A stretch of DNA of 4,449 bases. Origin: a virus (Duplodnaviria; Heunggongvirae; Uroviricota; Caudoviricetes). Made by a program: the position numbers and the translations under genes. Below the pieces are notes generated by a model that was not told the origin of the DNA, made no database searches, and saw nothing but the letters and a program-made list of their open reading frames with translations. Below, one piece after another: positions 1 to 4,449 of the stretch. Where the stretch lies: IMG/VR virus record IMGVR_UViG_2703718797_000011, one strand, 5' to 3'. Every line of letters begins with the position of its first letter. Position 1 is the first letter of the stretch.

Positions 1-564
1 GTTGACTGGTCATTTCCTGTACTGGTGGAAGATGTGGTGATGATGGGCCGCTATGGGCATATGGGTATGTTGCGTATCGCCAAAAAGAGGGATCGTCAAA
101 TTGTCACCGATGCGCTGGAACGTGTCGATATGGTGAATTTTCGCCATCGACAAATCGGCGAGCTTTCCGGTGGACAAAAGAAACGCGTCTTTCTGGCGAG
201 AGCGATTGCACAGCAGGGTGATGTGATCCTGCTGGATGAACCTTTTACTGGCGTTGATGTGAAAACCGAAGCCAAAATCATCAGCCTGTTGAGGGAGTTA
301 CGCGCGGAAGGCAAAACGATGCTTGTCTCAACGCACAATCTCGGATCCGTCACGACATTTTGCGATTATACGGTCATGGTCAAAGGCACCGTCCTGGCAA
401 GCGGGCCGACAGACACCACTTTTACAGCCGAGAACCTGGAGCTGGCTTTTAGCGGCGTACTGCGCCATGTCACACTTAACGGCTCGGAAGAAAGCATTAT
501 TACTGACGATGAACGCCCTTTTGTGGCTCATCGACCGTCAGCGGTGCAGAGGGAAGAAAGATGA
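1..564 (+). CDS. sitB: Metal (Mn2+/Fe2+) ABC transporter ATP-binding subunit, SitB/YfeB-type; 5'-truncated by the window edge (C-terminal ~187 codons present)
   Basis: The frame of track ORF 25..564 stays open back to base 1, so the GTG at 25 is not the real start and the gene begins upstream of the window. The translation carries the ABC signature LSGGQ, Walker B/D-loop [11 protein letters not shown] and H-loop STHN; Walker A is absent, as expected for a C-terminal fragment. The stop overlaps the next gene's ATG (ATGA at 561-564). The symbol is inferred from the two-permease operon architecture and phage-associated context; yfeB-type naming is equally possible. Confidence 0.85.
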
Positions 565-1418
565 ACGTGCTACTGGAACCCTTCAGCTATGAATATATGC
601 TCAATGCGATGTGGGTCTCGGCGATGGTCGGCGGTCTCTGCGCTTTCCTGTCATGCTATCTGATGCTAAAAGGCTGGTCGCTGATTGGCGATGCGTTGTC
701 GCACTCTATTGTCCCGGGTGTTGCGGGGGCATATATGCTGGGGCTTCCGTTTTCTCTGGGAGCCTTCTTTTCCGGCGGACTGGCTGCGGGCAGCATGCTG
801 TTTCTTAACCAACGCACCCGCTTAAAAGAAGATGCCATCATCGGTCTGATCTTCTCGTCCTTTTTTGGCCTGGGGCTGTTTATGGTGTCATTGAACCCGA
901 CATCTGTGAACATTCAGACCATCGTCCTGGGCAATATTCTGGCAATCGATCCGGCGGATATCCTGCAACTCACTATCATTGGCATTCTCTCGATCATCGT
1001 GCTTTTTTTCAAATGGAAAGATCTTATGGTGACCTTTTTCGACGAGAATCACGCCCGTGCTATTGGATTGCATCCGGGCAGATTAAAACTCCTCTTCTTC
1101 ACCCTGCTGTCGGTTTCGACCGTTGCGGCGCTGCAAACGGTTGGTGCCTTTCTGGTGATCTGTCTGGTGGTGACTCCCGGTGCAACAGCATGGTTGTTAA
1201 CCGATCGTTTTCCCCGCCTGCTCATGATTGCTGTAACTATTGGCAGTGTAACCAGTTTCCTCGGCGCGTGGGTCAGTTACTTTCTGGACGGCGCGACAGG
1301 TGGAATCATCGTGGTGGCGCAGACACTGCTGTTTCTTTTAGCATTTGTCTTTGCGCCCACCCATGGGCTTTTGGCAAATCGTCGGCGTGCGCATAAGGCG
1401 CTGGAGGATCGCTCATGA
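561..1418 (+). CDS. sitC: Metal ABC transporter permease, ABC-3 family (SitC/YfeC-type), 285 aa
   Basis: 285-aa strongly hydrophobic ORF with multiple predicted TM helices and the conserved ABC-3 permease motif [11 protein letters not shown]. The ATG overlaps the upstream ATPase stop (translational coupling), with a purine-rich SD-like stretch (GGGAAGAAAG) directly upstream. It is followed by a paralogous second permease, as in sitCD/yfeCD operons. Confidence 0.85.
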
Positions 1419-2272
1419 TGGCATTATTACTGGAGCCACTGCAGTTCACCTTTATGAGTCACGCACTGCTGATTTCACTGGTAGTTTCCATACCCTGTGC
1501 GCTGCTGTCGGTCTTTCTGGTCCTGAAAGGTTGGGCACTGATGGGTGACGCGATGAGTCATGCGGTTTTTCCTGGCATCGTGCTTGCCTGGATTCTGGGG
1601 TTACCTTTGGCTACAGGGGCATTCGTCGCCGGAGTATTCTGCGCGGTGGCGACGGGATACCTGAAAGACAACAGCCGAATCAAGCAAGATACAGTGATGG
1701 GGATTGTTTTTTCTGGCATGTTTGCCGCAGGTCTGATTTTGTATATTGCAGTCAAACCAGACGTACATCTTGACCATATTCTTTTCGGCGACATGCTCGG
1801 GATAACCATCGGCGATATAATCCAGACGATGATTATTGCCGGGCTGGTTACACTTGTTATTAGCGTAAAATGGCGGGATTTTTTGCTGTTCAGCTTTGAT
1901 TATCAACAGGCGCAGGTAAGCGGTTTGCATACGAGATGGCTGCATTATGGGCTGCTGTGCATGGTCTCTCTGACCATTGTGGCGACGCTGAAAGCGGTAG
2001 GTATCATTCTCTCCATTTCTCTGCTCATTGCGCCTGGCGCCATTGCGGTACTCCTGACACAACGCTTTCATATTGCGCTCCTACTGGCGACTGGCATATC
2101 GGTAATAGTGTCAATGACTGGTGTCTGGTTGTCCTTTTTTATCGACAGCGCACCAGCTCCGACGATTGTCGTCTTATTCGCGGTTTTGTTCATCATGACG
2201 TTTGCCGTTACCAGCATCAACGCACGCAAAAAGGGAAACTCCCATACACAGGATCTGTTATCACCCAATTAG
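1415..2272 (+). CDS. sitD: Metal ABC transporter permease, ABC-3 family (SitD/YfeD-type), 285 aa
   Basis: 285-aa hydrophobic ORF, paralogous to the preceding permease, with the equivalent motif GDAMSHAVFPG. The ATG overlaps the sitC stop (ATGA) and a GGAGG SD sits about 8 nt upstream. It is the last gene of the + strand operon, with a TAG stop at 2270-2272. Confidence 0.85.
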   Translation: MMALLLEPLQFTFMSHALLISLVVSIPCALLSVFLVLKGWALMGDAMSHAVFPGIVLAWILGLPLATGAFVAGVFCAVATGYLKDNSRIKQDTVMGIVFSGMFAAGLILYIAVKPDVHLDHILFGDMLGITIGDIIQTMIIAGLVTLVISVKWRDFLLFSFDYQQAQVSGLHTRWLHYGLLCMVSLTIVATLKAVGIILSISLLIAPGAIAVLLTQRFHIALLLATGISVIVSMTGVWLSFFIDSAPAPTIVVLFAVLFIMTFAVTSINARKKGNSHTQDLLSPN

Positions 2273-2319
2273 CACAACATCCGAGGACAGCAACACCCGA
2301 TACTTTTTCCTGGCTTCCA

Positions 2320-2344
2320 GCAACGGGGTTTCTTCCTCCGTTGC
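2320..2344. other. Inverted repeat / stem-loop (7-bp stem GCAACGG...CCGTTGC, 11-nt loop) in the convergent intergenic region
   Basis: Read directly from the sequence between the sitD stop (2272) and the stop of the minus-strand 70-aa ORF (2364). There is no adjacent U-tract on either strand, so it is not a canonical intrinsic terminator; it may be a weak bidirectional terminator or an RNA-stabilising hairpin. Confidence 0.3.
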
Positions 2345-2363
2345 ATATACAGCTCACCTTTTT

Positions 2364-2576
2364 TCAACGCGGATCAAAACCGCCCCACCACGGCATATTC
2401 ATTCGCTTGCCATGCCCGAACATTTCAATCCAGCGATATTCTGCCTGGGTATGTTCACGCGCAATGAAGAACGTACAACCGGCTATCGCTCCGTAAGCCC
2501 AGTTTCCGGTAAAAAGACCAACCAGTATCTGCGCAGCCACAGCACAAAGTGCATGAAGTAAGGGGCTTATATCCAT
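2364..2576 (-). CDS. Hypothetical small membrane protein (70 aa): two predicted hydrophobic helices plus an aromatic/basic C-terminal tail; family not recognised
   Basis: The ATG is preceded by a canonical AGGAGG Shine-Dalgarno with a ~5-nt spacer. The N-terminal ~40 residues are hydrophobic (PLLHALCAVAAQILVGLF, WAYGAIAGCTFFI) and the C-terminus is Trp/Arg/Lys/His-rich (RWIEMFGHGKRMNMPWWGGFDPR). It starts 12 nt downstream of the 92-aa ORF stop on the same strand. GC is about 50 percent, unlike the AT-rich genes upstream of it. Confidence 0.6.
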   Translation of the reverse strand: MDISPLLHALCAVAAQILVGLFTGNWAYGAIAGCTFFIAREHTQAEYRWIEMFGHGKRMNMPWWGGFDPR

Positions 2577-2588
2577 TATTTCCTCCTT
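2577..2588 (-). promoter_or_regulatory. Shine-Dalgarno (AGGAGG) for the 70-aa ORF, located in the 12-nt spacer after the 92-aa ORF stop
   Basis: Plus strand shows CCTCCT at about 2582-2587, i.e. AGGAGG on the minus strand, about 5 nt upstream of the ATG at 2576-2574. It lies immediately after the TGA of the 92-aa ORF (2591-2589). Confidence 0.6.
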
Positions 2589-2867
2589 TCAGCTCCATTC
2601 CCGAAGCGGTGTTTCCAGCTCCACGACATAATCAGAGAATACAGAAACATCAAACAAGTCATCAAGAATGCGAATGTTGACAAAATAACCATCATTCCGG
2701 ATACAGACAGGTTCTCCCTCTTCTGTTACCCCTGTTTCTGTGTAGGTGAAACCAATTTCATCAACTAACAGTTTATTCTGGAGGTCTTCATCTTCCGCCC
2801 AGCCAAGAGATGACAGGAAGGCCTTAAACTGCAGTTTGTCATGAAACTTCAAAGTTAAATCTTTCAT
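2589..2867 (-). CDS. Hypothetical small, strongly acidic protein (92 aa); family not recognised
   Basis: ATG with an AAGAGG SD-like sequence about 5 nt upstream. The start overlaps the stop of the upstream 220-aa ORF (ATGA at 2864-2867). About 20 Asp/Glu against about 9 Lys/Arg/His, including a DEDEDL patch, with no hydrophobic segment. AT-rich (about 40 percent GC) yet open for 92 codons. Confidence 0.6.
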   Translation of the reverse strand: MKDLTLKFHDKLQFKAFLSSLGWAEDEDLQNKLLVDEIGFTYTETGVTEEGEPVCIRNDGYFVNIRILDDLFDVSVFSDYVVELETPLREWS

Positions 2868-3526
2868 ACGACCTCTTTTAATTGCCTGTCATTTAATTCT
2901 TTATGCCATATGCGGAAATTGCGAATATGGCCAAACAGATGTCGTTCTCCAGTATTCGTCTGCCCTCCAAATCGGATATTTTTATCAGCGGTCACGCCAT
3001 TATATTCACAATAAACTTCATTAACCGCTTTACCATTTGTCACCACATGAAAGTGACCATCAGCTTTTGCAATACATCCAAATGTGGTTTTCTCTGCAAA
3101 TACATCTGTCGCTGCGCTATTAACATACGAGCCTGAAGGGTTTGACAGACTCATATATAACTTACCACTACCTCTGTTGATTGCTGCAATTGCTGATTGC
3201 CCGGTATTGGCTGCTGCTATATCCCACACGCGGGGTGCGGCGTTTGGTGCAATATCCCAGTTTTTATGAATCTCAAGTAAAAAAGTAAATGGTAACTTAT
3301 AAAGATTATTTCTGGTGGGGATACTAACCAAATCACTGGCTCTTGTCGTTGCGCTGCCTCCTGAAATAATAAATGATGATACACACGGCCCATTCTCTAC
3401 TTGTGGGGTGGCAAGATAAATATAGTCACCAGATACTGTTGCCCCACCCTGCAATAATTTCAAGCGTTTGCGTATCAATGTACGCATCGCCAAGAAAAGT
3501 TGTTGCACTACCATCATACTTATCAA
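2864..3526 (-). CDS. Hypothetical protein (up to 220 aa) with a putative ConA-like/LamG-type jelly-roll C-terminal domain; start codon uncertain; alternatively a frameshifted distal extension of the tail fiber
   Basis: A 220-codon open frame in roughly 42 percent GC DNA is unlikely by chance. The C-terminal motif NIRFGGQTNTGERHLFGHIRNFRIWHKELNDRQLKEV resembles the terminal strands of LamG/Laminin_G_3-type lectin domains (compare F-x-G-x-I-D-E-V-R-I-Y-x-x-A-L-S-x-x-E-I). The track start at 3526 is a TTG; in-frame ATGs lie at codons 4, 5 and 14, all inside the tail fiber coding region and none with an SD. Downstream of the tail fiber stop there is no ATG until about codon 125. The stop overlaps the ATG of the 92-aa ORF. 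Confidence 0.5.
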   Translation of the reverse strand: MISMMVVQQLFLAMRTLIRKRLKLLQGGATVSGDYIYLATPQVENGPCVSSFIISGGSATTRASDLVSIPTRNNLYKLPFTFLLEIHKNWDIAPNAAPRVWDIAAANTGQSAIAAINRGSGKLYMSLSNPSGSYVNSAATDVFAEKTTFGCIAKADGHFHVVTNGKAVNEVYCEYNGVTADKNIRFGGQTNTGERHLFGHIRNFRIWHKELNDRQLKEVV

Positions 3527-4449
3527 ACCGTATACGTAACCTTACCTGTCGTTCTGTTTTAAAACGGCATGAGGTTGTCACGTACTTGTTATCGCCTGAG
3601 ACATCAACTGACTTTGTTGCAGCAATTGATGCCATATTAATAGCCGAAGTTTGCCCAACCAGAGAATCGTTGCAGACAAACTTTCCATAAGTAAAACCAA
3701 AACTATCCGTCCCGGTTTCGGGCACATCCATGTTTGATGACTTCCCCCAGCTGGCTGGACTTTCCGAATTGAGCATGTAGTTCGTTCTTTGTCCCTCAAT
3801 AAGCAGGCCATCACACTCAAATCGCGGCTCATTAATTTCCGCCGTTTTCAGTTCGCCAGATTTGTTGATATATGTTGCCGTTGATGCGCGACTGAAATTA
3901 ACCTGTTTATCACTGGCGACCTGAACCACATCGTCACCAATAGCTATTTTTTTATAGCCCGGAGAAAAACCCGCAATCATATCCAGTGAATCGTTAAACG
4001 GTATCCACACATCAGGCAGCGGCGGCACTATATTCGCACAGGGCTCTGCAGTCACTTCCGCTGCGGCTTCTGCGCGGTCTGCCGCCTTTTCAGCTCGTGT
4101 CGCTGCCGACAGAGCCTCATCCTTTTTCTGCCCGGCCTTTGTTGCGTCTGCTGCGGCCTCCCGCGCTTTTGTGGTGGCGACTCCGGCATTTTCAGCGGCT
4201 GACTCTGCATTACGGCGGGAAGCCTCTTCACTGTCTGCGGAGGCTTCTTCTGACGCACGGGCATTTGTCTCTGAACGTTCTGCCGCTGTTGCTGCGTTTT
4301 GTGCGGCTGTTTTTGAAGAAGCTGCCGCTTTCGCGCTGTTACCTGCATTCGTCTCTGATGTTTTCGCCGCGTTCCTGGACGATGCCGCTGCTGTTTCTGA
4401 TTTCTTTGCTGCCGCTGCGCTCTGAGAGGCGGCTTCAGCGTTGCGTGCC
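3426..4449 (-). CDS. Phage side tail fiber protein (lambda Stf-like), 5'-truncated by the window edge; C-terminal ~340 codons present
   Basis: The frame of track ORF 3426..4055 remains open upstream of its GTG to the window end. The upstream part translates to an Ala/Ser/Thr/Glu-rich repeat tract (e.g. AAKTSETNAGNSAKAAASSKTAAQNAATAAERSETNARASEEA) that resembles the repeat shaft of lambda Stf-type tail fibers. The distal ~209 aa (TAEPCANIVPPLPDVWIPFNDSL ... EIIAGWGNSIW) is non-repetitive and AT-rich. The track reports only 3426..4055 because the repeat tract lacks ATG/GTG/TTG codons. Confidence 0.8.
   Translation of the reverse strand, partial: ARNAEAASQSAAAAKKSETAAASSRNAAKTSETNAGNSAKAAASSKTAAQNAATAAERSETNARASEEASADSEEASRRNAESAAENAGVATTKAREAAADATKAGQKKDEALSAATRAEKAADRAEAAAEVTAEPCANIVPPLPDVWIPFNDSLDMIAGFSPGYKKIAIGDDVVQVASDKQVNFSRASTATYINKSGELKTAEINEPRFECDGLLIEGQRTNYMLNSESPASWGKSSNMDVPETGTDSFGFTYGKFVCNDSLVGQTSAINMASIAATKSVDVSGDNKYVTTSCRFKTERQVRLRIRFDKYDGSATTFLGDAYIDTQTLEIIAGWGNSIW
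4056..4449 (-). repeat. Ala-rich low-complexity tandem repeat tract, coding (tail fiber shaft repeats)
   Basis: GC-rich GCN-dominated codon periodicity. Degenerate repeating peptide units (KTSETNA, SETNARASEEA, AEKAADRAEAAAE). The other frames give spurious Gln/Arg/Lys-rich and Ala/Phe-rich ORFs (track ORFs 4052..4348 - and 4171..4425 +). Confidence 0.6.

Follow-up and report, generated by a model that had tools for sequence, protein, structure and literature searches.

In phage lambda, the side tail fiber gene stf occupies the position downstream of J and lom, and some phage fibers, such as T5 pb1, end in a C-terminal intramolecular chaperone. The element considered here is a 220-codon open reading frame (ORF) on the minus strand of a 4,449-nucleotide stretch of DNA (IMG/VR record IMGVR_UViG_2703718797_000011), hereafter the window, the coordinates of which are used throughout unless another record is named. 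The window is E. coli chromosome carrying the tail-fiber end of a lambda-like prophage with a sit operon. An earlier note on this DNA had proposed that the ORF encodes a protein with a LamG/ConA-like C-terminus, possibly a second receptor-binding protein encoded directly after the fiber. Our analysis indicates that the ORF is very probably the detached 3′ end of an Stf-type side tail fiber gene of the prophage, split by a frameshifting deletion.

The closest intact relatives of this fiber are encoded in E. coli LF82 and in ev207, a lambda-like phage (record Lambda_ev207, genus Jouyvirus) from an infant-gut collection (PMC6969025). The sitABCD genes are a common moron, found on ~70% of infant-gut lambda phages (PMC6969025). 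A more distant relative of one fiber domain is the head spike fiber Rcc01080 of RcGTA, which attaches RcGTA to capsular polysaccharide (PMC7296036, PMC10218006), and which is present as a single subunit on the capsid vertices and not on the tail, with residues 2-10 alone resolved experimentally (PMC7296036). For the lateral fibers of the siphovirus groups in which we find homologues of the ORF, O-antigen or other surface glycans have been proposed as the primary receptors (PMC8594841).

Comparison with Intact Fiber Genes

The features of the window that are central to this comparison are the following:
2864..3526, minus strand: 220-codon ORF with a TTG start and its stop codon at 2864-2866, ending ...NTGERHLFGHIRNFRIWHKELNDRQLKEVV (ORF list)
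3452..3526, minus strand: spurious leader, ORF residues 1-25 (MISMMVVQQLFLAMRTLIRKRLKLL), which in the other frame reads as fiber ...DKYDGSATTFLGDAYIDTQTLEI
3426..4449, minus strand: 5′ part of the Stf-type side tail fiber gene, matching PHROG 1419 and running off the window at 4449

The ORF is present at 2864..3526 with all 220 codons open, as described in the earlier note, but only its residues 26-220 are real coding sequence, on the minus strand; translation of the same interval on the plus strand meets stops throughout. Comparison with LF82, together with the PHROG match described below, shows the ORF to be a composite in which 25 out-of-frame fiber codons precede 195 genuine C-terminal codons of the fiber gene. 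Nor does it lie directly after the fiber: it overlaps the last 101 nucleotides (nt) of the truncated fiber ORF (stop codon 3426-3428), in a different frame.

In LF82, the fiber gene (positions 3663-5722 of locus L001) is a single open frame of 686 codons, which starts with MAVKISGVLKDG... and ends with ...KELNDRQLKEVV, identical to the window, and the LF82 DNA on either side of the first deletion junction (see below) is 100% identical to that of the window. Phage ev207 carries a single annotated 791-amino acid (aa) "Phage tail fiber protein" (VUF53369.1), the ~440 C-terminal residues of which are identical to those of the LF82 fiber, and which is 105 aa longer solely through its Ala-rich rod. 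In the six draft-assembly contigs that we read, the fiber is also one long gene, of 686 aa in five and 673 aa in the sixth. The sequence that had been taken for a second, separately encoded receptor-binding protein is thus the C-terminus of one continuous fiber gene in both LF82 and ev207.

The same arrangement is recovered from PHROG 1419 ("tail protein", 793 positions), which the upstream ORF matches at profile positions 299-550 (E 2e-146) and the 220-aa ORF, through residues 26-220 only, at positions 597-793 (E 1.5e-73). The gap of ~46 profile positions between the two corresponds to the deleted codons, so that the two ORFs represent two pieces of one protein. A full-length match on a single polypeptide is obtained for LF82 and ev207 and fails in the window, where it is split over two frames with a premature stop; the window copy is therefore a disrupted member of this Stf-type family. 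Compared to the ev207 and LF82 fibers, it has the same domain order, is cut by the window edge before the N-terminal domain, and lacks 137 nt net within the spike-fiber domain, leaving two ORFs that are presumably non-functional.

Existing annotation of this locus already records a tail-fiber pseudogene, which PGAP describes as "missing C-terminus" in LF82 and as "frameshifted" in strain PAR. We note that PGAP ends the LF82 fiber pseudogene at position 5367, leaving the LamG-coding part unannotated, yet all 686 codons are open.

Deletion Junctions and Their Origin

A megablast comparison with 5,426 complete E. coli genomes returned many 100%-identical matches (e.g., LF82, NRG 857C and NC101), always in three pieces that together span 218 bases more than the query. 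Relative to the LF82 locus (L001), only two differences are found in the prophage flanks, with the DNA being otherwise 100% identical:
3453..3454, minus strand: junction 1, where L001 4996-5134 (139 nt) is replaced by TT, with a net loss of 137 nt
2367, minus strand: junction 2, where L001 6220-6301 (82 nt) is replaced by T, with a net loss of 81 nt

Junction 1 removes fiber residues ~445-491 (SMTGG...QYSPG), ~46 residues within the spike-fiber domain, and the net deletion of 137 nt shifts the reading frame, resulting in both the early stop of the fiber and the placement of its last 195 codons in a separate ORF. Past this junction, the fiber frame continues through nine junk codons (IAGWGNSIW) to a TGA at 3426-3428. 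Junction 2 removes exactly the last 27 codons of the 97-aa phrog_1443 gene while keeping its stop codon; the C-terminus lost here (AWDVASLMDFAVPVVACLLVWLLVNRG) is hydrophobic-looking on reading the sequence. A look-up of the resulting 70-aa product retrieved only gene calls cut at contig ends. Many draft-assembly contigs break off at precisely the base where this deletion begins, suggesting a repeat boundary or a mis-join.

Two other ways of relating the window to its relatives were considered and rejected. A programmed frameshift that joins both ORFs is ruled out, as the single frame of the intact relatives encodes 46-47 additional residues and the gap in the profile match equals the deletion. 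An ancestral short form with a later insertion in LF82 is likewise ruled out, as the stretch missing from the window is part of both the PHROG 1419 and the GTA_spike_fiber profiles, and is needed for the domain score.

The deletion itself may be genuine, arising from prophage decay in the source strain, or it may be an assembly mis-join. In the latter case, both junctions (137 and 81 nt net) would be errors of assembly, the fiber gene of the source would be intact at ~686 aa, and the ORF would be purely a sequence artifact. Several observations are in line with such an error: the two deletions lie within 1.1 kb of each other, each with 1-2 nt of filler, in DNA that otherwise matches LF82 at every base; the second starts where many draft contigs end; and neither junction was found elsewhere among the 5,426 complete E. 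coli genomes, the GTDB species representatives, or the JGI metagenome contigs, with the best matches of the junction sequence in the complete E. coli genomes always falling into two pieces. However, many strains show decay of the prophage tail genes at this locus, making private deletions plausible, and we consider the mis-join unlikely, while still giving it appreciable weight.

The decay in other strains takes several forms. In PAR (L002 3663-5722), the fiber is a frameshifted, N-terminally incomplete pseudogene and the J gene has an internal stop, and in the protein cluster P0001 (387 members), the gene calls begin in a different frame (MGRVYHHLLFQEAAQRQ) before joining ...RASDLVSIP. These independent disruptions in PAR and P0001 point to a prophage tail module at the sit locus that is decaying repeatedly. 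Whether the deletion in the window is real or a mis-join, there is no independent lectin gene in the window; the window copy is most likely a pseudogene fragment, or possibly an assembly artifact.

Domain Architecture of the Intact Fiber

The domains of the LF82 protein and the corresponding segments of the window, in order from the N-terminus, are as follows:
LF82 residues 1-131: PF08400, "Prophage tail fibre N-terminal", 227 bits
LF82 residues ~113-251: Ala-rich rod, with a weak match to Ala-rich DNA polymerase III tau models, far below cutoff
LF82 residues 329-529: NCBIfam GTA_spike_fiber (NF048003), 56.8 bits (cutoff 36), profile positions 1-181
LF82 residues 560-681: Laminin_G_3, 24.6 bits (cutoff 27.6)
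~4035-4448, minus strand: Ala-rich rod, within the 5′ fiber part
~3456-3803, minus strand: N-terminal two thirds of the head-spike-fiber domain, within the 5′ fiber part
3338..3451, minus strand: last strands of the head-spike-fiber (GTA_spike_fiber) domain, ORF residues 26-63, with the motif YLATPQVENG..SSFI..TTRASD
2867..3331, minus strand: LamG/ConA-like beta-sandwich module, ORF residues ~66-220, with a short helix at its end
2882-3247, minus strand: Pfam Laminin_G_3 match, ORF residues 94-215 aligned to profile positions 27-149 of 151
2987..3226, minus strand: hypervariable LamG center, 80 residues, a candidate ligand-specificity region

The PF08400 domain is seen in LF82, as the window itself ends before the N-terminus, and the fiber DNA that the two share is 100% identical. 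By analogy with lambda Stf, this domain presumably anchors the fiber to the tail, and the Ala-rich rod that follows is presumably a coiled coil. The GTA_spike_fiber domain falls below its 36-bit cutoff in the window, where only the last 35 profile positions (147-181 of 182) are matched, with 29.6 bits; the upstream piece has no match because the deletion cuts the domain. A peptidase S74-type domain was not found in the fiber protein.

The domain that precedes the LamG module is homologous to Rcc01080 (PDB 6TB9 chain sequence; phmmer E 6e-10, residues 297-543). ORF residues 26-63 align with residues 241-281 of Rcc01080 and have in common with them the motif Q.E.G...SS.I.T....TRA.D, which places the start of the LamG module proper at approximately ORF residue 66. 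Rcc01080 itself (325 aa) stops ~40 residues past this motif and has no LamG module. Sequence relatives of the LF82 fiber in the PDB cover its first 94 residues (9e7m chain Ta, "Tail fiber protein") and the spike-fiber domain only, and PDB sequence searches with the LamG module, whether run with the one sequence or with a profile, gave no relative.

Fold and Variability of the LamG Module

The LamG/ConA-like character of the C-terminus stands at the level of the fold, and is marginal by the Pfam threshold. The PF13385 Laminin_G_3 profile scores the 220-aa ORF at 26.7 bits (E 6.9e-6) and the in-frame 195 aa at 27.2 bits, marginally under the gathering score of 27.6, with E-values across the ORF, the 195-aa piece and the LF82 protein ranging from 5e-6 to 3e-5. 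The same family is matched by 18 of 23 homologues at E <= 0.01, with no other family matched. An AlphaFold2 model based on an alignment of 23 sequences has a predicted template-modeling score of 0.68 and a mean predicted local distance difference test score (pLDDT) of 67, rising to ~75-80 over the domain; residues 40-195 have pLDDT values of mostly 65-88 and are modeled as an all-beta sandwich with a short C-terminal helix.

Rather than an unrelated fold, a Foldseek comparison of this model with the PDB returned top matches that are all ConA-like (E ~1e-7, probability 1.00, template-modeling scores of 0.5-0.6), including sialidase CBM40, the lectin-like subdomain of the botulinum toxin Hc region, and C-reactive protein. 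The predicted structure is a two-sheet curved beta-sandwich that superposes on LG, pentraxin or CBM40 domains. Sequence identity to ConA-like modules (CBM40; the N-subdomain of botulinum and tetanus Hc, and NTNH; pentraxins; pappalysin LamG; laminin LG/neurexin LNS) is just 7-19%, and no binding-site residues can be transferred from the ConA-like lectin modules to the fiber module.

Conservation across the module is uneven. Mean pairwise identity is 35% in the center (residues 76-155 of the 195-aa piece), compared to 64% and 69% in the flanks (residues 41-75 and 156-195, respectively), and other alleles are 13-27% identical to the window allele in the center. A conserved frame around a hypervariable center is the usual signature of a specificity determinant, making this segment a candidate for that role.

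In the intact protein, the LamG module most likely serves as the distal tip of the side tail fiber and binds glycans. The N-terminal domain would anchor the fiber on the tail, by analogy with lambda Stf, and the rod would project the two C-terminal beta domains, with the LamG module as the distal tip that may bind surface glycans (O-antigen, lipopolysaccharide core or capsule) reversibly through its variable center. Such binding would concentrate virions on the cell and speed adsorption ahead of receptor engagement by the central tail-tip protein J. A role in host recognition, as the earlier note had envisaged, finds support in general terms, albeit as part of the fiber. In the window, the spike-fiber domain is cut, the fiber ends early, and the LamG fragment is most probably silent.

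Alternatively, the LamG module could belong to the fiber without being the receptor binder, acting as a folding or trimerization cap or in a structural capacity, and the spike-fiber domain would then determine specificity. The RcGTA homologue of the latter domain itself binds polysaccharide (PMC7296036, PMC10218006). Conservation is high over the final ~35 residues of the LamG module, and C-terminal intramolecular chaperones have a precedent in fibers such as T5 pb1. Against such a cap, the LamG center varies more than any other segment (mean pairwise identity of 35%, with other alleles 13-27% identical to that of the window), its fold matches lectin and carbohydrate-binding modules and not known chaperone domains, and no peptidase S74-type domain is present. 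On balance, we judge the cap improbable.

Even where a glycan-binding tip is preferred, a number of points weigh against our interpretation of the locus. An assembly error may have taken the place of a real deletion, with deletion 2 starting where many draft contigs break; the Laminin_G_3 score is just below the gathering cutoff; and the AlphaFold2 model is of moderate confidence and is based on 23 sequences only. Glycan binding, a trimeric state and a distal position are properties that we infer for the LamG module, and a literature search yielded no solved tip structure or identified ligand for this fiber family, with searches for side tail fibers with LamG, or tail fibers with Laminin_G_3, returning nothing relevant. 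The probable lack of expression of the fragment is, similarly, read from the sequence.

The ORF as a Gene

No Shine-Dalgarno-like motif precedes the TTG or any other of the four possible in-frame starts of the 220-aa ORF, and a scan for promoters and terminators gave no minus-strand site and no sigma-70-like promoter for this ORF. The exact 220-aa product, with its four alternative starts, is absent from a collection of 15 billion proteins, in contrast to the neighboring 92-aa protein, which occurs in the same collection on at least 1000 contigs. Being without credible start signals, the detached LamG ORF is most probably not expressed, and it seems very doubtful that the fragment is nevertheless translated and serves the lysogen as a free lectin.

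We attach equally little credence to a second receptor-binding protein or tip adhesin with a gene of its own, attached to the fiber tip in the manner of T-even gp38, as the earlier note had envisaged. The 220 open codons, the lectin-type fold, and the terminated fiber ORF ahead of it in the window would all be expected of such a protein. However, the split is due to a private 137-nt deletion that also destroys the preceding domain, which is covalently joined to LamG in the intact protein, and every other copy examined (LF82, ev207 and the draft contigs) is fused in one frame to the fiber; no free product has been recorded. Codons 1-25 are fiber sequence in the wrong frame, without a Shine-Dalgarno motif, the product is missing from the 15 billion proteins searched, and no similarity to gp38 or Tfa was seen in Pfam or in fold. 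The likeness to T4-type gp38 and lambda Tfa is one of position only, each being encoded where a fiber gene ends or beyond it, and neither the 220-aa ORF nor the 92-aa and 70-aa genes matched any tail-fiber-assembly (Tfa) family in Pfam, NCBIfam or PHROG.

Finally, a lectin-domain effector or defense protein of the lysogen, unrelated to the virion, can be dismissed as exceedingly improbable, as, despite the moron-type genes around the ORF at the prophage end (sitABCD and small membrane proteins), there were no matches in the PADLOC defense-system library and no promoter-like site, and the homologues found all form the ends of tail-fiber genes, including those of virulent phages.

Neighboring Genes and Distribution among Phages

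The remaining genes of the window are as follows:
From 25, plus strand: 3′ part of sitB (partial), at the start of the sit stretch 25..2272
561..1418, plus strand: sitC (ORF list)
1415..2272, plus strand: sitD (ORF list)
2364..2576, minus strand: truncated 70-aa copy of the 97-aa gene (phrog_1443), with junction 2 at 2367
2589..2867, minus strand: 92-aa gene (phrog_1361), the ATG of which overlaps the fiber stop (ATGA)

The 92-aa gene is a conserved downstream partner of LamG-tipped fibers, and a model of its product gave no significant fold match. Downstream of the fiber, the neighbors correspond to those in ev207 and LF82 (the 92-aa gene, followed by the 97-aa gene and sitDCBA); upstream, the LF82 fiber gene follows gpJ and lom. 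In the ev207 record (L003 4761-7585), the sit genes adjoin the tail-fiber module, as they do in the window. Related fibers are indicated for phage 21 and mEp460, where the 92-aa partner gene was shown to overlap the side tail fiber gene annotated in each.

A tblastn search with the 195-aa piece matched 205 phage records, with a bimodal distribution of identity: 15 records at >=95% and 188 below 60%. Among the annotated matches listed, all fall under tail fiber, side or lateral tail fiber, or tail protein, with the exception of one "hypothetical protein", and the LamG match forms the 3′ end of the gene in all three loci inspected. The records include lambdoid phages (ev207, ev017 and Lambda_2E9), the T5-like PhiR41_1 (classified from its tail genes), the Seuratvirus VogelGryff/Bas25, a Dhillonvirus record, and several genomes of ~105-137 kb; virulent T1-like, T5-like and Seuratvirus phages are among the carriers of homologues.

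We note two peculiarities among these records. In PhiR41_1 (L005), two coding sequences are annotated as "side tail fiber protein" (1724-3517 and 3621-4088), with the LamG part as a separate 155-aa coding sequence, which may reflect a split in the annotation, a frameshift from sequencing or two genuinely separate genes. In addition, OR848352.1 and OR847733.1 (Listeria phage LM ...) and MG065654.1 (Campylobacter phage C15) carry a coliphage-type tip together with the 92-aa partner, at 37-50% identity; they are probably mislabeled or contaminant coliphage sequences.

Taken across these phages, we tentatively suggest, as a possibility that falls short of an even chance, that the intact gene belongs to an uncharacterized receptor-binding cassette, in which a side or lateral tail fiber with a hypervariable LamG tip is always followed by a translationally coupled 92-aa assembly or partner factor, and which moves as one unit among lambdoid, T1-like, T5-like, Seuratvirus and Dhillonvirus phages. 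Our literature search found no ligand, structure or role reported for either the LamG tip or the 92-aa protein.

Significance

The fold assignment, the fiber family (PHROG 1419 and the NCBIfam naming) and the sit-prophage context have all been recorded previously, and the window itself matters little, being a fragment of a disrupted tail-fiber gene that public annotation gives as a tail-fiber protein or a frameshifted pseudogene. It does provide a caution: where an ORF follows a terminated fiber gene in another frame, it should be compared with intact alleles before it is called an adhesin. The wider family is of modest interest for host-range engineering, in that a LamG tip and a conserved 92-aa partner occur together across several siphovirus groups.
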